Positions 652 through 21,664 of a DNA stretch of 31,175 bases are shown piece after piece. The stretch comes from a virus. Its lineage: Duplodnaviria > Heunggongvirae > Uroviricota > Caudoviricetes. Position numbers and translations under genes: made by a program. The DNA lies in IMG/VR virus record IMGVR_UViG_2565956711_000006, positions 1-31,175 of that record. One strand, written 5' to 3'. A model generated the notes under the pieces. That model was not told the DNA's origin. It made no database searches and saw nothing but the letters and a program-made list of their open reading frames with translations. Within the stretch, counting starts at the first letter, position 1. Every line of letters begins with the position of its first letter.

Positions 652-678
652 AAGGCCCCATTTAGGGGCCGCTTTTAT
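652..678. terminator. bidirectional intrinsic terminator shared by the convergent ORF 1..648 and ogr
   Basis: GC stem GGCCCC (654-659) / GGGGCC (665-670) with 5-nt loop, followed by a T-run on the plus strand (gcttttat) and on the minus strand (tttatttattt). Confidence 0.6.
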
Positions 679-917
679 AATGCCAGCGATAACTGATCTT
701 CGCCGTGGTGACTTCTTGGAAAAGCTTCTTGTGGCACCATCGCGCCGGGCGCTGGCTGGGTCTGGTTTAGTGAACCGTCTATTTCCGTCATGCTGGTGAA
801 ACAGTACCCGCACAACATATTTTGACACTGGTGATAGCTGCGCCGCACAAGCAAACTCAGCTCAACACTGGTTCTGGTTTTTGCTATTGCACGGCAGCGA
901 GGACAGCGCATTGCCAT
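675..917 (-). CDS. ogr: late-gene transcriptional activator, Ogr/Delta zinc-finger family
   Basis: 80-aa product MAMRCPRCRAIAKTRTSV...YHQCQNMLCGYCF with C-X2-C-X22-C-X4-C spacing as in P2 Ogr (recalled); AGGAGG 7 nt upstream of ATG at 917; lies directly downstream of D as in P2. Confidence 0.8.
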   Translation of the reverse strand: MAMRCPRCRAIAKTRTSVELSLLVRRSYHQCQNMLCGYCFTSMTEIDGSLNQTQPAPGAMVPQEAFPRSHHGEDQLSLAL

Positions 918-965
918 ACGCGGGCCTCCTTTCAGGATTGGTTAATATCAACGCAAGTATAACGC

Positions 966-2084
966 TTAAGACGTTGAATCGTCACTCTCCGCTGTCCAGT
1001 CGTCGATTTTTACTTCCAGTTCCAGCGACGTGGTAAACCCTCCCCCGCCAATATCGTGAACGCACCGCGTTATCGTCCAGTTCCCACTGTCGATCGTGGA
1101 CTTAAAGCCGTAGACGCTGGCGGGCTGTTCCGGGTACAAATCTGCGCGGCCACGCGCCAGGGTGATACTGAACGTCGCCGCTCCACGCTGCAACTCCCGC
1201 CACTTAGCCGCAGCGGCACGCTTCGCCGCCTTTTCCGTCTTGAAGGTTTTACGGATAACAAAAACGTTACCTTCGGCCCCGGCCAGATAATCACCCTCTT
1301 TTTTGCTGGATGCAGGCTCTTTCTTTTTGGCCTGGCTGGTTCGTCGCCTGCGGGTGGTTTTCTTCACGGTAGTGGATGGTTTTTTGCCAAAGTTGAGATC
1401 AAGCCAGTATGCAGTTACGCCTGTGTACGCGTCGCGGTCAGCTACGTTAAACCGATGTTTATCACCGCTTGACCGGACGATCTCGATTACCGGCAGCGGC
1501 TTGCCACTCTGCGTCACTCCCTTGCCCGGCGTGATAAACAGAAGCATACCGTTTTTAATGGTTGCCACCGCGCCCAGCATTTCGGCCATGCGCGTTAAGA
1601 AGCTGATATCTGATTCACTCGTCTGATCAGCGTGGTCTATCTCAATCTTCGCCAGTTCTTCGCTGACGCCCGCACGCAGATCGTAGCGGCTGGCAATGCT
1701 GGCGACCACATCCCCCACGGTAATATCGTGCCAGCTATATTCCCTCTTCACGTTGAAGGTATCGCGGAAATCTGCGCTTCTGGCACTGATCGTTAGCTGG
1801 TCAGGCGGGCCAGCGTGTCCGATTTCGTCAACCGTATACACTCCCTTAAAAACCAATGGATCATTATCCCAGCCCAGCGCCACCGATATCTTTGCGCCGC
1901 GTGATGGTAATGCTACCTGCCCGTCAGCATCATCCAGAGTCAGATCCAGCGTGTCCGCTTCAAAGCCCCGGTTATCTGTCAGAGAAAGGGAGATCAGCCG
2001 GTTATCCAGCGCCGTAAGCTGCTTACCCTCAATCTCAATACTGAACGCCGGGCGCGGCGAATATCGGTTTTCTGTCGTGTCCAT
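966..2084 (-). CDS. D: tail protein gpD (late control gene D family)
   Basis: 372-aa ORF; N-terminus MDTTENRYSPRPAFSIEIEGKQLTALDNRL matches remembered P2 gpD/Mu N-type tail proteins; SD GAAGGAG upstream of ATG 2084; D-ogr order as in P2. Confidence 0.88.
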   Translation of the reverse strand: MDTTENRYSPRPAFSIEIEGKQLTALDNRLISLSLTDNRGFEADTLDLTLDDADGQVALPSRGAKISVALGWDNDPLVFKGVYTVDEIGHAGPPDQLTISARSADFRDTFNVKREYSWHDITVGDVVASIASRYDLRAGVSEELAKIEIDHADQTSESDISFLTRMAEMLGAVATIKNGMLLFITPGKGVTQSGKPLPVIEIVRSSGDKHRFNVADRDAYTGVTAYWLDLNFGKKPSTTVKKTTRRRRTSQAKKKEPASSKKEGDYLAGAEGNVFVIRKTFKTEKAAKRAAAAKWRELQRGAATFSITLARGRADLYPEQPASVYGFKSTIDSGNWTITRCVHDIGGGGFTTSLELEVKIDDWTAESDDSTS

Positions 2085-2151
2085 ATCAACTCCTTCATCA
2101 TGATGGGGTACATCGTCGCCACGCGCGCGCGCATGAACAACGCCCCGTCAT

Positions 2152-2169
2152 TGTTGCAGGTTGCTGACA
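2152..2169. promoter_or_regulatory. TGT-N12-ACA dyad, candidate Ogr-dependent late-promoter activator site, between divergent D and FI
   Basis: tgt tgcaggttgctg aca read directly; centre 2160.5; candidate -10 gatatt at 2207-2212 (FI side) and gatgta on the minus strand at 2109-2114 (D side), each 46.5 bp from the dyad centre. Confidence 0.55.
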
Positions 2170-2241
2170 ACCCTTATTCATCGCATCGGCCTGCCATTGC
2201 CGCAATGATATTCGCAGTCATTAAACTGGCGAGGCAAATAC

Positions 2242-3435
2242 ATGGCCACTAACTACCATCACGGTGTAACCGTCACGGAAACCACCGACCTTAGCACGAT
2301 GATCACCGACATTGATTCGGCGGTGATCGGCGTTGTCTGCACCGCTGATGATGCGGACGAAACAGCGTTCCCGCTGGATACCCCTGTACTGATCACCCGC
2401 GTGGCTAACATGCTGGGCAAGGCAGGTAAAACCGGCACCCTGTTTACCACCCTGAAAGCGATTTCAGACCAGACCAGCCCGCAAACCATTGTGATCCGCG
2501 TTGCTGATGCTGCAAATATCGAACCGCCAGAAGGCGGCACCGCACAGACACAGGATCAACTGGTTATTGGCGGCACCGATGCAAACGGACGCTTTACCGG
2601 CATGTACGCGCTGCTGTCTGCCGAAATGCGCGTAGGCGTGCGCCCGCGTGTGCTGGCTGTTCCCGGTCTTGATACGGAAGCGGTGGCCGCACAACTCGGC
2701 GTCATTGCCGAAAAGCTGCGCGCGTTTGCTTACGTGGCAGCGAACGGCTGCAACAGCATCGCCGAAGTGAAGGAATACCGCGAACAGTTCTCCCAGCGTG
2801 AAATGATGGTTATCTGGCCTAATTTCATCTGCTACGACACCAACGCCGGAGCGAATGCCACCGTGCCCGTGGGTGCCCATGCGGTTGGGATGCGCGCCAA
2901 AATCGACGCAACGCAGGGCTGGCATAAAACCATTTCCAACGTGCCCGTTAATAACGTGCTGGGGATGGATCGGGATATCTATTTCACGTTGCAGGGCACC
3001 GATACCGACGCCGACGAACTGAACGCAGCAGGCGTTACCACGCTGATCAAGCAGGACGGCTACCGCATCTGGGGATCGCGTACCTGCGACGCGGAAACGT
3101 ATATCTTCGAAAGCTATACCCGAACCGCGCAGATCGTTGCGGATACCGTCGCCGAAGCACATTTCGCCTATGTTGATAAACCGCTTACCCCGTCGCTGGT
3201 AAAGGACATTGTGGACGGTATCAATAAGAAGCTGACCTCATATGTGACGGCTGGCAAGCTGCTGGGCGCCCGCTGCTGGTATGACCCGGAACCGAATACC
3301 TCGGAAACCCTGCGCAATGGTCAACTGACCATTAAGTACAACTACACCCCTGTTCCACCGCTGGAAAATCTCAGCCTGGTACAGGAGTTCACCGACGAAT
3401 ATTTCGCTACGTTTTCCAGCGCAGTGAATAACTAA
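2242..3435 (+). CDS. FI: contractile tail sheath protein gpFI
   Basis: 397-aa ORF; MATNYHHGVTVTETTDLSTMI... resembles P2 FI; followed by tube and E/E' genes. Confidence 0.92.
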   Translation: MATNYHHGVTVTETTDLSTMITDIDSAVIGVVCTADDADETAFPLDTPVLITRVANMLGKAGKTGTLFTTLKAISDQTSPQTIVIRVADAANIEPPEGGTAQTQDQLVIGGTDANGRFTGMYALLSAEMRVGVRPRVLAVPGLDTEAVAAQLGVIAEKLRAFAYVAANGCNSIAEVKEYREQFSQREMMVIWPNFICYDTNAGANATVPVGAHAVGMRAKIDATQGWHKTISNVPVNNVLGMDRDIYFTLQGTDTDADELNAAGVTTLIKQDGYRIWGSRTCDAETYIFESYTRTAQIVADTVAEAHFAYVDKPLTPSLVKDIVDGINKKLTSYVTAGKLLGARCWYDPEPNTSETLRNGQLTIKYNYTPVPPLENLSLVQEFTDEYFATFSSAVNN

Positions 3436-3447
3436 CCGGGGGCGCTT

Positions 3448-3963
3448 ATGGCACTGCCTAAGAAACTCAAATATTTCAATATGTTCTTTGACGGGGATAA
3501 CTACTTCGGCATGGTGCCGGAAATCACCCCCGCCAAACTCACCAAAAAAACCGAAGACTACCAGGCGGGCGGTATGCCGGGTTCGGTTGCGGTGGATCTG
3601 GGCTTCGACGCTGGCGCCCTGGATATGGATATCACGCTGGGCGGCATGGATGCAGGGCTAATGAAAAAATGGGGCGTTACCACTGCGGACGGAATGCAGG
3701 TGCGCTTTGCTGGCTCTTACCAGGACGATGCGACCGGCGACGCCGTACCGTGCGAAATCCAGACGCGTGGCCGCTTCACTGAACTGGATCCCGGTTCGGC
3801 AAAGGTTGGGGATGATACTTCGCATAAGTACACCCTGAAAAACACCTATTACAAGCTGACCATCAATAGCGAAGAAATTATCGAAATTGATGTGCTCAAC
3901 ATGATCTACAAAGTTGCCGGTGTGGATGTGCTGGAAAAACACCGCGCTAACATCGGCTTATAA
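3448..3963 (+). CDS. FII: tail tube protein gpFII
   Basis: 171-aa ORF MALPKKLKYFNMFFDGDNYFGMVPEITPA..., P2 FII-like size and position. Confidence 0.9.
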   Translation: MALPKKLKYFNMFFDGDNYFGMVPEITPAKLTKKTEDYQAGGMPGSVAVDLGFDAGALDMDITLGGMDAGLMKKWGVTTADGMQVRFAGSYQDDATGDAVPCEIQTRGRFTELDPGSAKVGDDTSHKYTLKNTYYKLTINSEEIIEIDVLNMIYKVAGVDVLEKHRANIGL

Positions 3964-7943: not shown

Positions 7944-7969
7944 TTCTATCAAAGGTTGGTTTGGGAGAA
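7944..7969. repeat. hix/gix-like 26-bp crossover site (left end of invertible tail-fibre segment)
   Basis: ttctatcaaagg tt ggtttgggagaa; inner 14 bp (7956-7969) is the exact reverse complement of 9791-9804. Confidence 0.7.
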
Positions 7970-8290
7970 GCGGCAAAACGGAATGTGGGAACAGGGGAAA
8001 ATCAGATACCTGATATGTCATCATATGCATCAGGTTCAGGCTGGCGAAAAATGCCAGATGGTTCAATTGAACAGTGGGGACGAATTAGTTTTCCTGGTGA
8101 ACACGGGCCTGTATCCGCCAATGTTTCATTCCCGATTCCATTTACACAGACACCGGGCATTGTAATTGTGTGCGATGGTGGTTTCGGGGGCGGGAATATG
8201 TGGGGGGCGACCAACTGGAGCACTACCGGCTTCATAGCTCACTGCAATTATGGTCTTGAAGGTGGTGCGTTTTTCGCTAAGGGCTGGTAA
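7958..8290 (+). CDS. alternative tail-fibre C-terminal exon (Hv'), silent in this orientation, no start codon of its own
   Basis: Frame open from the crossover site: [16 protein letters not shown]...[20 protein letters not shown]; shares LGLGE junction with H; stop TAA 8288-8290 overlaps the G' ATG. Confidence 0.7.
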
Positions 8291-8733
8291 TGATGAAATA
8301 TCTGTACGTAAACAACCTGGCATATCCTTACGAACTTCAGTCTCTTTATGTTGAAAAAGGTGAATGGCCTGAAGAAAAAGGTGTTGATATAGACGAAGTA
8401 ATTTTCAGGGAATATTTCTATGACACACCACCAGAAGGAAAATACAGATGTGTTGGAGAAGATGGACTGCCTGCATGGGCAGATATTCCTCCACCAACAC
8501 GTGAAGAACAAATTGCATCAGCCGAAACTAAAAAGCAGCAATTGATTAACCAGGCCAACGAATACATCAACAGTAAACAATGGCCAGGTAAAGCATCAAT
8601 TGGTCGTCTGAAAGGTGAGGAACTGGCGCAATATAATTTGTGGCTGGATTATCTGGACGCACTGGAGCTGGTCGATACTTCCAGTGCGCCAGATATTGAA
8701 TGGCCTACGCCTCCGGCAGTTCAGGCCAGATGA
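8290..8733 (+). CDS. alternative tail-fibre assembly chaperone (G'/Tfa')
   Basis: 147 aa; C-terminal LDALELVDTSSAPDIEWP parallels IDAVTATDTSTAPDVIWP of the minus-strand G; converges with and overlaps the 3' end of G. Confidence 0.8.
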   Translation: MMKYLYVNNLAYPYELQSLYVEKGEWPEEKGVDIDEVIFREYFYDTPPEGKYRCVGEDGLPAWADIPPPTREEQIASAETKKQQLINQANEYINSKQWPGKASIGRLKGEELAQYNLWLDYLDALELVDTSSAPDIEWPTPPAVQAR

Positions 8734-9307
8734 CATCCGGCGCGGTGCTGGTATCTGTTGCCGTCACCGCGTCAATGTAATTCAGCACAGCGTTAAGTCG
8801 GGTGTTTTCTGTCTGCATCAGCTTCCGCCCGGCCTGTAATTTCAGTTGAATCAGACTAATGGAAGCCATTGCAGTATCAATCAGTGACTGACGCTGTGCT
8901 TCTGCCGCGCCTACTGCGGCGCTATGCTGTGCCTCGGTATCCGTCACCCATTTCTCACCATCCCATTCATCGTATGGCGTTAATGGGGCGATAGTGGTTG
9001 TATTTTCAGGGTAATCACCCGGAACTGTGATTTCTTTGGTATCTCCCGTTTCGGTACTATAGACAACTTCACCGCGATGGTCTGGCACATATTCCCATGA
9101 ATTTAAATCTACAGAGCGACAGATTGCATAACCAGCTTTATGTGTACCTGGTGCATCCAGACAGGAACATGCCGGGATACCGACGCCGACAGCGAGATAT
9201 TCAGTTGATGTAGAAATATATTCCCGCGTTTCGCCATCATAGTTATGTACGATGATTTCCCCATCATTTAAAGCGTAACCGTCTTTTCCCAAAATAGCCT
9301 GTTCCAT
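8705..9307 (-). CDS. G: tail-fibre assembly chaperone gpG (expressed orientation)
   Basis: 200-aa ORF starting immediately after the H stop; conserved Tfa C-terminal motif. Confidence 0.85.
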   Translation of the reverse strand: MEQAILGKDGYALNDGEIIVHNYDGETREYISTSTEYLAVGVGIPACSCLDAPGTHKAGYAICRSVDLNSWEYVPDHRGEVVYSTETGDTKEITVPGDYPENTTTIAPLTPYDEWDGEKWVTDTEAQHSAAVGAAEAQRQSLIDTAMASISLIQLKLQAGRKLMQTENTRLNAVLNYIDAVTATDTSTAPDVIWPELPEA

Positions 9308-10852: not shown

Positions 10853-11456
10853 TTGCGATCTCCACGGTGTCAATTAAATGGATTGCCGCCCCGGTGTAAT
10901 CATCACCGCCCACGGCTATGGTTTCAGGAAAATACGGGTACACGGTTAGCGTATCGCCGGAATAACTGCCCGCGCCGATATACAGATCGCCGGTTGTTTG
11001 CAGGTGAAGAGACATTCCCAGCATATGACGGCTGCACGGCTTCACATCGGCGATCAGGCGTTCAAGTTCCTGATAGGTTTCTTCACTAATGCCCTGGTCT
11101 TCCACGCCAATATCCAGCGTGAAGGTGCCCGGTGCGGTGTCGATGTTCCACCACTCGTTAACCCGGATGAAGAAGCCGAACGGCTCCACAACCCGGCGCA
11201 TGGCGCCCGTTGTACCCTTGTACTTATGCAGGTAAAACGCATCGGCCACCGCCTTTCGTTTTGTGTTTATCGGCCAGGCCTCATCCCAGCGATCAACGGA
11301 GAAGGCCCACGCCAGATAGGGCAACAGATCAGCCCGACACGTCCACGGGTTCCACAACTGGCGCAGCGGCACGGGCACTTCACCCAACGACGCACAGACG
11401 CGCGCGGCGACGCGCTCCATTCGGCTGGCGCTGGGTGGTAACAGGTCATTACTCAT
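10842..11456 (-). CDS. I: baseplate assembly protein gpI
   Basis: ORF after J; ATG at 11456 (MSNDLLPP...) overlaps the J stop; position and size fit P2 I. Confidence 0.8.
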   Translation of the reverse strand: MSNDLLPPSASRMERVAARVCASLGEVPVPLRQLWNPWTCRADLLPYLAWAFSVDRWDEAWPINTKRKAVADAFYLHKYKGTTGAMRRVVEPFGFFIRVNEWWNIDTAPGTFTLDIGVEDQGISEETYQELERLIADVKPCSRHMLGMSLHLQTTGDLYIGAGSYSGDTLTVYPYFPETIAVGGDDYTGAAIHLIDTVEIASGD

Positions 11457-12360: not shown

Positions 12361-12719
12361 GCCTGGCCCCTCAATGTAATATCAGCGTTAAATGGCGTCT
12401 GATTGTCGGTGCGATTGGCCTGGATAGTGGCAACCAGCCGACCGGCACCCGGCGCGCTCAGGGTGATACTGGTCAGAGAGATCCGCGGTTCCCATAAATA
12501 CAGGGCGCTGTAGATGGCAGACATAACGCGCAGCTTCGTTATGGCGTTATCGACCGGCTGATCTATCAGGTTGAAAAGCTGTGAACCGTAAGCGCGGCGC
12601 ATTACACGGGAACCGATCGGCGTTAACAGAATATCGCCGATAGACTGCGCTATATGCTCGTTGTCGGTGATGGCATGGCCTGAACTGGCATTCATGCCGC
12701 TGTAACGGACTGTACTCAT
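12357..12719 (-). CDS. W: baseplate protein gpW
   Basis: 120-aa ORF, ATGA overlap with V stop; W-like position and size. Confidence 0.82.
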   Translation of the reverse strand: MSTVRYSGMNASSGHAITDNEHIAQSIGDILLTPIGSRVMRRAYGSQLFNLIDQPVDNAITKLRVMSAIYSALYLWEPRISLTSITLSAPGAGRLVATIQANRTDNQTPFNADITLRGQA

Positions 12720-13345
12720 ACCGGGCCACCTGTATTACTACCACCGGACTGGACGCCGCTATGTTTGTGAGAATGGACAACGACACCATTAGACGAAAGC
12801 GATCCACCTGAATGGGTAATATTGCCCTTCATTTCCCCGCCCTTTTGCACTTCCAGCGTGGCGGTGATCAGCTTGTTGGTGCAGACCACTTCCGGCGTGT
12901 CCAGGGTAACGCGCGTATCTGCCTTGACCGTTACCACCGGCACGGTGGCGGTAATGGATTCCGACGCGGTGACGCTTGCCGTTTTCACCCCGCTGACAAC
13001 CAGCGCGCTGGCCTCCGGGTCATATGAGATACGGGCGCCATCCGGGTGCAGGATCACGCAGGTGGTAGCGCCAGCATCTGGCGGCGGTGCGTCTTCGCTG
13101 TAAAGGCTTCCGGCAATGAATGCCGTTTCCATCTCACCGCAGGGGCACAAAATATAAACCTGTTCGCCCACTGTCGGCGCCCACCACGTCACGGCTTCAC
13201 CGGCGCGCGGCACTGCCCAGCGGATCCAGTCGGTTTTGTTCTCGCCGGTTTCGACGCGTGCAAGATACTTTTTCGTGTCCACTTCCAGCACGGTGCCAAT
13301 GCGGGCGAGATTGCAGATAAGGCGATAGAGTTCGTTTAAATTCAT
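12716..13345 (-). CDS. V: baseplate spike/central hub protein gpV
   Basis: 209-aa ORF MNLNELYRLICNLARIGTVLEVD...; first gene of V-W-J-I-H-G operon. Confidence 0.85.
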   Translation of the reverse strand: MNLNELYRLICNLARIGTVLEVDTKKYLARVETGENKTDWIRWAVPRAGEAVTWWAPTVGEQVYILCPCGEMETAFIAGSLYSEDAPPPDAGATTCVILHPDGARISYDPEASALVVSGVKTASVTASESITATVPVVTVKADTRVTLDTPEVVCTNKLITATLEVQKGGEMKGNITHSGGSLSSNGVVVHSHKHSGVQSGGSNTGGPV

Positions 13346-13483
13346 AGTGCTGACTGTTTCCCGTGGTGCCGGTTACGCTGTCCGGCGTCGCTTCCGCCCG
13401 GTAGCAGGCTTTACGACCGTTTCGGCTTTTGGGTTATGCAGTCAGTATCAGGAGTCGCGCGCGCGCAAACAACGCGGCGCCAT

Positions 13484-13501
13484 TGTGGCAGGTTGGTGAC
13501 A
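13484..13501. promoter_or_regulatory. TGT-N12-ACA dyad, candidate Ogr box for the V-operon late promoter
   Basis: tgt ggcaggttggtg aca; 20 of 22 nt identical to the FI-proximal element (cattgtNgcaggttgNtgacaa); candidate -10 gatact on the minus strand at 13444-13449. Confidence 0.55.
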
Positions 13502-16974: not shown

Positions 16975-17823
16975 TTATGACGCCGCCTTCTGGCGGGCTG
17001 TCGTGGTTCTTTTCTTCGCTGCCGGCTTGCTTTTAGCGGCGGGCTTTTTGGTTTCCCGCTTCGCTTTTGGCTGGGCTGGCGGCGTTGCCGTCTGGGTTTC
17101 GGTGTTGTTTGCTTCTGGCTTGCCGTCTGCGCCCTCACCGTCAGCAGGTTGCCCGGACTTCTTAAGCGCACGTTGCAGAAGCTCAATATCACGGGTTACG
17201 CCTGCTTTTTTCGGGTTCAACACTGCCGCCTGGCGCAGGTATTCAACCGCAGCGGTAAGCGATTCAACGTTGTCAGTCAGGCGCAGCGTATACCCCAGCG
17301 CCTTAAGCAGCTTTGAGCGCACCTCATCCGGCATATCTTCGTTCAGGGTTAAGCCCCGTAACGCTTCCAGCAGGTCAGCGGCGACCGGCGCAACAGCCGG
17401 GTTAGCTTTGAATGCAGCCAGGACGGGATCGCAAATTTCTTCCACCAGTACGGTGGCAGTGGTGCGGCGATACTGATCCGGCATCGGCAACTTATGGCGC
17501 AAGACATACTGACCAATGCGCAGGGCTTCAGCGATGTTTCCGCAGTCACAGCACCAGATCATGACGGTGGTTAACACGTCGTCAGACTGGCCGGAATCTG
17601 CCGTAAGTACGCCTTCGATCCACGGCTGGTAGTCCGGCAGCAGTTCGCGTTTTAAATCCGCTTTAGCCTTCTGGGACTGGACACGGCTTAAACGGGCTTT
17701 ATCCAGTCGCAGGCGGTGAAGCATGGTTTCGTAGGCCGTCATTTCAAGCTGCGACGGCTCACGGCTGGCGTGGCGGCGTTCAGCCATCACGCGGTTAAAA
17801 TGTTGTTGAGCAGGTGTCAACAT
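16975..17823 (-). CDS. M: terminase small (endonuclease) subunit gpM
   Basis: 282 aa; P2 M-like position after N; SD GGGGG; long basic Lys/Ala/Pro-rich C-terminal tail. Confidence 0.82.
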   Translation of the reverse strand: MLTPAQQHFNRVMAERRHASREPSQLEMTAYETMLHRLRLDKARLSRVQSQKAKADLKRELLPDYQPWIEGVLTADSGQSDDVLTTVMIWCCDCGNIAEALRIGQYVLRHKLPMPDQYRRTTATVLVEEICDPVLAAFKANPAVAPVAADLLEALRGLTLNEDMPDEVRSKLLKALGYTLRLTDNVESLTAAVEYLRQAAVLNPKKAGVTRDIELLQRALKKSGQPADGEGADGKPEANNTETQTATPPAQPKAKRETKKPAAKSKPAAKKRTTTARQKAAS

Positions 17824-18952: not shown

Positions 18953-19798
18953 TCAGCAGTCAGCAAGCTGGGCGTTAGAGTTTTCAGTTGCGCCGGTCGC
19001 TTCCGGGCGGCGGTATTTACTGGCGTCCTGGGTAGAAAGCTGCGCTTTCATCTCGTCGAACTCAGAGCGCAACTTATCCACCGCTTCGGCGGTCTGCTTG
19101 TTCTTAAGCTGCCCTGCGCTCAGTTTTTCCATCTTGTCCAGCAATTCACCCTGACTTTCCGCTACCAGTTCAACCGCCTGGCGGATATCGCCATTTTCAC
19201 GATCGAAGTGCTGGCGGGTTCCGGTCAGCATTTCCTTGATACGGGAAAAGAAATTCTTCCCGGTGTCGGACGCTGGCGGCTCTTCCTGCGCAAATTCGAG
19301 GGATGATTCCAGGGTTTCAGTGAAGAAGCATTCAGGTGCGTAGTGACGCGCAGCCAGTGGGTTGGCGCTGGCGTTCTGGGTGCAAAACTTCATCATTTCG
19401 GTGCCCAGGCTCGCCGGGTTATCGGTACAGGCCAGCCCCATAAGGTAGGCTTTTCCGGTGTCGGCAAAGGACGGATGCACCTCAATGCTATGGTAGATTT
19501 TCTGGCGTTTGCCTTTCAGTTCTACCAGTTCGTCCGTGGCGTCCACCTTCACCAGAAGCGCCAGTTTGCCCTTTAGCGGGCCCTCGGCAATCTCTTCTGC
19601 TTTGGCTTCAACCACGTCACCATACGCGCGGAAATCGCTTGTCGGCGACCAGCCTAAAATGTGCTCCAGATTGACGCGGGCGCCATATACCTGGGGATCG
19701 TACTGTTCGGCCATTTCGGTGATGTGCTGACGTTCCAGTACTCGACCGTCACAGGTTGCGCCCTCTACTGCGGCGCGGAAAAAATTTGTCATTGGCAT
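18953..19798 (-). CDS. O: capsid scaffolding protein gpO
   Basis: Start at ATG 19798 (MPMTNFFRAAVEGATCDGRVLERQHITEMAEQYDPQVYG...), which parallels the remembered P2 gpO N-terminus; the track's longer ORF extends upstream without support. Confidence 0.82.
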   Translation of the reverse strand: MPMTNFFRAAVEGATCDGRVLERQHITEMAEQYDPQVYGARVNLEHILGWSPTSDFRAYGDVVEAKAEEIAEGPLKGKLALLVKVDATDELVELKGKRQKIYHSIEVHPSFADTGKAYLMGLACTDNPASLGTEMMKFCTQNASANPLAARHYAPECFFTETLESSLEFAQEEPPASDTGKNFFSRIKEMLTGTRQHFDRENGDIRQAVELVAESQGELLDKMEKLSAGQLKNKQTAEAVDKLRSEFDEMKAQLSTQDASKYRRPEATGATENSNAQLADC

Positions 19799-19887
19799 GG
19801 TGACAAAGCTCCGGGTTGGTAAGCGATTGATATTAACCAGTGCCCCAATCATTCCCTTTGCGGCCGGAAGGCGCAAAGCCTTCACTT

Positions 19888-19905
19888 TGTCGGACTCAGG
19901 CGACA
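19888..19905. promoter_or_regulatory. TGT-N12-ACA dyad in the divergent O / P late-promoter region
   Basis: tgt cggactcaggcg aca; centre 19896.5, which is 98.5 bp from the O ATG and 55.5 bp from the P ATG. Confidence 0.5.
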
Positions 19906-19951
19906 ACCAGCGGCGATATTGTTGCGCGCGCGAGCGCGATAGCCTGTTGCC

Positions 19952-21664
19952 ATGAATACAGCCGAAGACCTCAGCACAAAAGCCAAAAGCCTCTACTGGC
20001 AGGCGTTTAGCATCACTCAGATTTCTAAGGAAATCGGGGTGAGCATTAACACGATCTACAGTTGGCGCCGCCGCTATGAATGGGATAAAGCTACCCCCAT
20101 GCAGCGGGTGCAGGATCGCACGCACGTTCGTTACCTGCGCCTGGTGGAAAAGGACGACAAAACCCCGAAGGACTTTAAAGAAATTGACCTGCTGGCGCGC
20201 CAGCTTGACCGCTTTGAACGGCATGAGCGACGCGACCAGGAGAAAGAGAAGAAGGCGAAGACCCCGAAAAACCATTTCACCGAAGAACAGATAACTCAGC
20301 TTCGCGCCCTGATCTTTGATTCGCTATACGAGCATCAAAAACGCTGGTTCAAACAGTGGAACCGGCGTAACCGCTTTATCCTCAAATCGCGCCAGATTGG
20401 TGCCACCTGGTACTTTGCCCGCGAAGCGCTGTTGCGTGCGCTGGAAACCGGAAATAATCAGATATTCCTGTCAGCCAGCCGCGCCCAGGCGTTCCAGTTC
20501 AAGCGGTTCATTCAGAAGCTGGCAAGGGAAATAGGAGTAGAACTTAAGGGCGGTGATGCCATTGAGTTAAGCAACGGTGCGATCCTGTATTTTCTCGGCA
20601 CCTCCGCCGCGACGGCCCAGAGCTACACCGGCGATCTGTACCTTGATGAAGCCTTCTGGATCAGTAATTTCATCAAACTGCGCTCGGTGGCCGCAGGCAT
20701 GGCGACACAAAAAGGACTGCGCCGCACCTACTTTTCGACGCCTTCCAGTGAAGAACATGAAGCCTATCCCTTCTGGACTGGCGATCAGTTCAATGAAAGC
20801 CGCCGCCGATCCGATCGGGTGGATATCGACACCAGTTATAAGGCACTGAAAAACGGCAAGCTATGCGGGGATAACATCTGGCGCCAGATAGTCACGCTGG
20901 AAGACGCCATGAAGCTCGGTTTCGATCTGGTTGATATTGATGAAATCCGTAGCGAAAACTCCCTTGACGAATACGCCAACCTGTACGGATGTACCTTCGT
21001 TAAAGCAGGGGAACGCGCCTTCGACTACAACACAATTTTGGGCTGCGGCGTTGATGGCTACATGCCGGACGCGTGGCCGGACTGGAACCCGTTTGCACCT
21101 CGCCCGCTGGGTAATCGCCCTGTCTGGGTTAGCTATGACCCCAACGGCAGCAGCGGCAAAGGCGACAGCGCCGGGCTGGTTGTGCTGGCCCCGCCAGCCG
21201 TGCCGGGTGGCAAGTTCCGCGCGGTAGAACGCCACCAGTTACGCGGCATGGAGTACGAAGAGCAGGCCAAATTTATTAAAGAGATCACCACCCGCTACAA
21301 CGTGCAGCACATTGCTATCGACGGCACAGGGATCGGCGATGCGGTTTATCAACTGGTGATCAAGTTCTTCCCGCAGGCGGTTAAATACAACTATTCACCG
21401 GTTCTTAAGCGGTCGATGGTGCTCAAAATGTTGATGGTCATTCGTGCCGGGCGCTTTGAGTTCGACGCCGGAATGATGGATCTCGCACAGTCGTTTATGA
21501 CCGTGCGTAAAGTCACCGCAGGCGGCGTTATTACCTACCAGTCCGATCGGGCCCGTGGCAGCAATCACGGCGATCTGGCATGGGCAACTATGCAGGGCAT
21601 TTACAACGAACCGATCGGCGCGGAAGTGACCGGCGATAACGGCAGTTTTGTGGAGGAGTTTTAA
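19952..21664 (+). CDS. P: terminase large (ATPase) subunit gpP
   Basis: 570 aa; N-terminal HTH-like segment then ATPase and nuclease regions; divergent from O as in P2. Confidence 0.9.
   Translation: MNTAEDLSTKAKSLYWQAFSITQISKEIGVSINTIYSWRRRYEWDKATPMQRVQDRTHVRYLRLVEKDDKTPKDFKEIDLLARQLDRFERHERRDQEKEKKAKTPKNHFTEEQITQLRALIFDSLYEHQKRWFKQWNRRNRFILKSRQIGATWYFAREALLRALETGNNQIFLSASRAQAFQFKRFIQKLAREIGVELKGGDAIELSNGAILYFLGTSAATAQSYTGDLYLDEAFWISNFIKLRSVAAGMATQKGLRRTYFSTPSSEEHEAYPFWTGDQFNESRRRSDRVDIDTSYKALKNGKLCGDNIWRQIVTLEDAMKLGFDLVDIDEIRSENSLDEYANLYGCTFVKAGERAFDYNTILGCGVDGYMPDAWPDWNPFAPRPLGNRPVWVSYDPNGSSGKGDSAGLVVLAPPAVPGGKFRAVERHQLRGMEYEEQAKFIKEITTRYNVQHIAIDGTGIGDAVYQLVIKFFPQAVKYNYSPVLKRSMVLKMLMVIRAGRFEFDAGMMDLAQSFMTVRKVTAGGVITYQSDRARGSNHGDLAWATMQGIYNEPIGAEVTGDNGSFVEEF

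Follow-up and report, generated by a model that had tools for sequence, protein, structure and literature searches.

We identified a single symmetric sequence, a perfect TGT-N12-ACA dyad, between the divergent genes D (baseplate hub) and FI (tail sheath), and it probably serves as one activator site of the Ogr type for two late promoters. Judging from the promoter elements around it, the dyad would lie at about -55.5 of both promoters and drive D in one direction and FI in the other. The window (the whole stretch of DNA that was analysed, 31,175 nucleotides) is a P2-family prophage. Its positions 900-3500 share 95% identity with the Salmonella phages SEN4 and SEN5 (Peduoviridae, Senquatrovirus). 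Positions 1900-2450 are 100% identical to a prophage of E. coli EC09, and this stretch is found in 31 of 5,426 complete E. coli genomes. The use of one Ogr site for two divergent late promoters is already established in kind, from pP and pO of P2. New are a probable second shared site at D/FI, its origin with an inverted FI-U block, and its presence across a large clade.

The gap between D and FI comprises 157 bp (2085-2241), bounded by the D start codon (CAT on the plus strand, 2082-2084) and the FI ATG at 2242. The original prediction placed one perfect dyad in this gap, named the flanking genes D and FI, and noted Shine-Dalgarno sequences on both sides. The sequence and the Pfam matches (Phage_GPD and sheath domains) bear this out (Table 1), and no second TGT-N12-ACA was found in the gap, even at one mismatch. 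Genes downstream of FI, also on the plus strand, include matches to Phage_tube and GpU. According to the SEN5 annotation and the map of open reading frames, O to G, D and ogr share one strand, and FI-FII-E-T-U is on the opposite strand.

Table 1. Features of the D/FI region and of the late promoters used for comparison. Positions are those of the window; minus-strand promoter elements are given in the direction of transcription.
Feature	Position	Strand	Remarks
Gene D (baseplate hub, "late control D")	966-2084	-	Pfam Phage_GPD, 6.6e-19; first gene of the D-ogr unit
Gene FI (tail sheath)	2242-3435	+	Pfam sheath domains; heads the FI-FII-E-T-U operon (to 7832)
Gene for ogr-type activator, 80 aa	675-917	-	Pfam Ogr_Delta, 1.5e-13; downstream of D, same strand
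Terminator-like hairpin and T-run	654-670	-	Directly after ogr
Sigma-70-like site GTGACG-18-TATACT	956-985	-	Between D and ogr; 9/12 match, chance-level frequency in the stretch
Shine-Dalgarno of D, GGAG	2093-2090	-	
Shine-Dalgarno of FI, GAGG	2231-2234	+	
TGT-N12-ACA dyad, TGTTGCAGGTTGCTGACA	2152-2169		Perfect; centre 2160.5; proposed Ogr-type site
-10-like hexamer AATGAT, FI side	2204-2209	+	Centre 46 bp from dyad centre
-10-like hexamer GACGAT, D side	2117-2112	-	Centre 46 bp from dyad centre
Alternating CG run, GCGCGCGCGCG	2122-2132		D-side spacer, about -29 to -17
PV hexamer GATACT	13449-13444	-	Dyad 13484-13501, TGTCACCAACCTGCCACA on the minus strand
P/O dyad	19888-19905		TAGCCT towards P, AATGAT towards O, symmetric
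P2 hexamers at -12 to -7			pO GAAACT; pP TAGCCT

The prophage encodes its own candidate activator. The translated Ogr contains the cysteine motif C5-X2-C8-X22-C31-X4-C36, the CX2CX22CX4C pattern quoted in PMC3931495. It is 30% identical to Ogr of P2, and the shared-site reading assumes that its site preference is the same. By analogy with P2, the hairpin after ogr is probably the end of the D-ogr transcript; in the P2 record (NC_001895), the ogr transcript and the F operon share an annotated terminator in the corresponding position. The sigma-70-like site between D and ogr is a candidate for a promoter of ogr itself, as the P2 record gives -35 and -10 signals for ogr at the place equivalent to 956-985.

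The interval between U and G contains about 670 bp more in the window than in SEN5 (window 7961-8733, plus strand, versus 8705-9307, minus strand). This additional DNA holds a C-terminal fragment of a tail fibre (Pfam Gp53-like_C) and another gene for tail-fibre assembly (Caudo_TAP), convergent with G. It resembles an alternative cassette for host range or what remains of an invertible segment.

The bare dyad pattern is not enriched in the window, with six perfect copies found (5.83 expected from shuffled sequence) and 109 at one mismatch (120 expected). Three of the six perfect copies are located in the three short gaps at the head of late operons, i.e., D/FI, upstream of V, and P/O (467 bp in total; Poisson P ~1e-4), and the other three are inside coding sequence. 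We give weight to the dyad for its position and conservation alone, and none for enrichment of the pattern. The D/FI dyad and the dyad of the V promoter (PV) agree at 16 of 18 positions.

To compare promoters, we aligned them on the dyad centre, set this centre at -55.5 and read the hexamer at -12 to -7. In P2, a single "activator binding site; pO, pP promoters" is recorded at 3057-3087 (NC_001895). The mapped starts of pO and pP are at 3016 (minus strand) and 3127 (plus strand), 111 bp apart, and the dyad between them (TGT-N12-cCA) is centred on 3071.5, which is -55.5 for both. All five window promoters, as well as P2 pO and pP, fit NANNNT in this register, a form that carries the two most important positions of a -10 element. 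The hexamer of P2 PF (GAAAAT) is shifted by 1 bp, to -11 to -6. NANNNT has a background frequency of 5%. The six perfect dyads of the window have 12 sides, exactly five of which carry NANNNT at -12 to -7; all five face late operons, and none of the other seven sides has it. The side of the PV dyad facing away from V is among those that lack it, and thus PV serves as a one-directional internal control.

On the two sides of the D/FI dyad, the hexamers in register match TATAAT at four (AATGAT, FI) and three (GACGAT, D) of six positions. No sigma-70 -35/-10 pair lined up with either of them in a scan for consensus sequences. The D side closely resembles PV of the same phage, from the dyad through the spacer, with GACGAT in the register of GATACT. 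From this alignment, the FI-side start is predicted near A2216 (leader of about 26 nt) and the D-side start near C2105 or A2104 (leader of about 20 nt), 111 bp apart. The distance from the dyad centre to the FI ATG is 81.5 bp, close to the 82.5 bp of P2 PF, and the FI side is thus the positional homologue of PF. The D/FI region combines the features of a late promoter (a dyad, weak -10 elements without -35, an encoded Ogr_Delta protein, and virion operons headed by the promoters) with those of a shared site (a single activator site and symmetric promoter elements in the same register).

The original prediction tentatively had one symmetric site driving both transcripts, and this is supported by the geometry of P2 pP/pO, the likeness to PV and conservation in the 29 lineages described below. 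The hexamers that it proposed as -10 elements, gatatt (2207-2212) and gatgta (2114-2109, minus strand), are present, but the comparison favours hexamers 3 bp nearer to the dyad. Measured from the dyad centre, gatatt and gatgta have their near edges at 46.5 bp and their own centres at 49 bp.

Four aligned D proteins served as the query for a scan of genomes, one for each species, which returned 80 loci. FI is divergent from D-ogr at all 55 loci where D is at least about 59% identical to the window D, whereas all 25 loci with lower D identity have the P2 order U-D-ogr. Divergent loci occur in Salmonella, Citrobacter, Hafnia, Pectobacterium, Photorhabdus, Xenorhabdus, Yersinia, Providencia, Morganella, Serratia, Brenneria, Kosakonia, Klebsiella, Erwinia, Pantoea and Edwardsiella, and in the phages SEN4/5, Chuche, KSP20 and phiT5282H. 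Nearly every divergent locus has one dyad in the gap, TGT-N12-ACA or TGT-N12-AGA, about 82 bp from the FI ATG.

We grouped these loci into 29 lineages with spacers less than 80% alike. NANNNT is found exactly at -12 in 23 of the 29 lineages on the D side and in 27 on the FI side, counts that are not independent trials, as the lineages share ancestry. No other offset between -32 and +12 has NANNNT in more than six lineages. Dyads were chosen within 68-95 bp of the FI start, so the register on the FI side is partly fixed by this choice; the D-side result is fully independent of it. At two loci, L035 and L047, the dyad that was chosen is 3 bp off the common register. An in-register NANNNT on the D side is missing from four or five lineages (L018, L019/L020, L024 and L025), and in L055/L059 it is shifted by 1 bp. 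The distance from the D ATG to the dyad varies from 55.5 to 80.5 bp across lineages, but that from dyad to hexamer is kept. Thus, the position of the hexamer follows that of the dyad and not that of the ATG, as it should in a promoter. Matches to TATAAT average 3.5 on the FI side and 2.9 on the D side (FI better in 13 lineages, equal in 10 and worse in 4). Better -10 elements towards FI would suit a larger need for sheath than for hub protein.

Several individual loci have features of their own. The D ATG of Yersinia aleksiciae (L015) coincides with the predicted +1. The divergent FI/D-ogr layout with a single dyad is also present in Photorhabdus (L012-L014) and Xenorhabdus (L016, L017, L021-L023 and L026). 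Xenorhabdicin tailocin loci were defined in a 2026 paper as being flanked by araC and ogrK, and a shared D/FI late promoter may control these tailocins. In phiT5282H (L086, 28012-29228) and Chuche (L087, 28224-29437), the S-position and V-position genes either overlap or have just 11 bp between them, which leaves no room for a separate PV. All late genes of these two phages may be transcribed from just two shared dyads, P/O and D/FI.

We propose that the Ogr-type zinc-finger protein of the prophage binds the D/FI dyad and would recruit RNA polymerase to both sides, via the alpha subunit as in P2. P2 late promoters need the activator and the C-terminal domain of the RNA polymerase alpha subunit, as indicated by the phenotype of rpoA109. 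Given that both -10 elements are weak and that there is no recognisable -35, each promoter would be silent until Ogr is made. Transcription from the FI side, the homologue of PF, would then cover FI-FII-E-T-U. The D-side transcript would include D and then ogr and end at the hairpin. Read-through from D would keep the late transcription of ogr that P2 obtains from PF.

The arrangement probably originated by inversion of the promoter-bearing FI-U block, in an ancestor shared by a large set of enterobacterial P2-family phages. In P2, all of the genes compared (O to G, D, ogr and FI to U) are co-oriented, and D and ogr are still co-oriented with O to G here. The complete genomes of phiT5282H and Chuche have the same FI-U inversion, with D outside of the operon. 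Inversion of FI-U cuts D off from the PF operon. Everything upstream of D on its own strand is antisense to the 5.6-kb FI-U operon, and thus D needs its own promoter. We considered and rejected recombination between two dyads as the mechanism of inversion. Such an event should have left a solitary dyad past the end of U, yet in the window, SEN5, phiT5282H and Chuche this region has terminator hairpins and no dyad remnant in common.

A shared site could also be occupied on one side at a time, with FI and D-ogr in competition. Both promoters need the same 18-bp site, and the slightly better -10 elements on the FI side could bias the outcome towards sheath. However, the predicted starts are as far apart as those of P2 pP and pO, a distance at which the core polymerase footprints are separate. 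The sequence fits joint and alternate firing equally well, and the single-site precedent of CRP (see below) covers control of promoter pairs, not their simultaneous occupancy. We consider strict competition somewhat unlikely.

It is quite improbable that the dyad activates the FI operon alone, as a plain PF homologue, and that D has a separate promoter independent of Ogr. A sigma-70-like sequence (TCGCCA-16-TATCAT, minus strand, 2232-2205) with a 9/12 match could be this promoter. The weakness of GACGAT is consistent with such a reading, and a weak constitutive promoter might suffice for D, of which far fewer copies are needed than of sheath. However, three sigma-70-like sites in the stretch, where 1.6 are expected, is a chance level, and TATCAT is the reverse reading of the FI -10 element. 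Against this reading, too, the distance between D-side hexamer and dyad is fixed in most lineages despite variation elsewhere in the spacer and in the length of the leader, and the D side matches PV of the same phage. Moreover, D is a late structural gene, and its constitutive expression from a prophage would be unusual. Transcription of D by read-through from the V-G operon would have to cross the 5.6 kb of antisense FI-U. That the dyad is a chance match without any regulatory role is extremely unlikely, as its unremarkable overall frequency is set against the clustering in late intergenic gaps, the agreement with the PV dyad and a position conserved across genera. Thus, one Ogr-type site for both D and FI is the reading that we prefer.

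The spacer on the D side contains an alternating CG run. Of the 29 lineages, 23 have such a run towards D and three have one towards FI. The run is 6-11 nt long and also occurs at PV (~13455-13470) and PP (~19920-19935) of the window, as well as in the P/O gap of phiT5282H (L086, 22320-22330) and Chuche (L087, 22830-22840), where it is on the P side. FI and O promoters almost always lack it. The run could be a second cis element, one that divides Ogr-dependent promoters into two classes, although we think this unlikely. If it is, one shared site could give different strength or timing in each direction, and the CG run could, for example, keep D-ogr and P-Q at a lower level than sheath and scaffold. 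It could also gate the ogr feedback loop, which the inversion would have rewired through the D promoter.

The promoters of the P/O gap (flanks 19799-19951) touch the coding sequences next to them. Transcription towards P is predicted to begin at 19952, a position that coincides with the A of the P start codon and points to a terminase mRNA without a leader. The V transcript of the P2 record likewise starts at base 1 of its coding sequence. On the other side, the start of O in annotation of the SEN5 type (ATG 19852, minus strand; 19850-19852) sits inside the predicted O-side -10 element AATGAT. The Pfam GPO match begins at residue 23 of this version of O. The ATG at 19798 (19796-19798), 18 codons downstream, is probably the real start.

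Similar overlaps occur in the annotation of the D/FI region. Hypothetical proteins are annotated across this promoter region, equivalent to 2100-2252 of the window, in SEN5 (12651-12803) and Chuche. We judged this small gene to be spurious. Open frames over the dyad differ between lineages in start, end and frame, and five of the 27 representative lineages that we checked have none. A structured RNA is also not indicated, with no Rfam matches in the whole window at gathering thresholds. The start of D in KSP20 (L004, 838-2268) seems to be extended about 276 nt upstream, so that it overlaps FI, and that of FI in phiT5282H (L005, 2938) seems to be 46 nt too far upstream. In SEN5 (L001, KT630646.2), a 39-aa frame on what looks like the wrong strand (11231-11350) is labelled "ogr"; the Ogr_Delta gene, of 80 aa, shares the strand of D. 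The promoter assignments proposed here would correct several database entries in which open reading frames or start codons lie over these promoters.

A text search of the literature found no relevant description of an inverted D or FI block, and the paper on SEN4/SEN5 has no mention of promoters, ogr or gene orientation. We considered BTP5, from a Salmonella dRNA-seq paper, as a source of mapped starts. Its gene numbering points to the standard P2/186 gene order and the prophage is barely transcribed, so it was set aside.

If the D/FI dyad functions as proposed, the P2 rule (one dyad at -55.5 for two promoters) is reusable at another locus, and a clade of enterobacterial P2-family phages and prophages would operate two of their late promoter pairs from two shared sites. 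This would explain how the essential gene D stayed under late control after the loss of its operon, and how read-through into ogr was kept. The model gives exact predictions of transcript starts. It leaves the accepted view of late activation unchanged.

The closest known system is pP/pO of P2. In both cases a single dyad lies midway between two mapped or predicted starts 111 bp apart, and the -10 elements are weak, in the same register and without -35. The P/O gap of the window repeats the P2 layout, with a P-side hexamer (TAGCCT) identical to that of P2 pP. The differences are in the genes served (P and O in P2, D and FI here, a pair that is absent from P2) and in the dyad, which is imperfect at P2 P/O and perfect at D/FI. 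The starts of pP and pO are mapped, whereas those at D/FI are predicted.

PF of P2 has its activator site at 17555-17583 and its starts at 17626-17628, upstream of FI (NC_001895). It shares with the FI side of the window a -10 element at 46-47 bp from the dyad centre. Unlike the proposed D/FI site, PF works one way, and its far side faces the non-essential gene fun(Z). The P2 PF operon includes D as its last gene, overlapping the end of U, whereas the window operon ends at U. In Stenotrophomonas phage Smp131, PP' and PO' are one TGT-N12-ACA-like element read on both strands (PMC3931495). This is again a P/O pair, predicted from sequence alone.

Outside of the phages, CRP offers a parallel, although it belongs to an unrelated activator family with other spacing rules; its class I sites are at -61.5 and beyond. 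CRP bound at one site drives divergent promoters (El-Robh & Busby, 2002, as cited in PMC3105977), and 11 natural E. coli cases of such single-site divergent control are described (PMC3105977). What CRP has in common with the arrangement proposed for D and FI is a symmetric activator, one site and two divergently aligned promoters.
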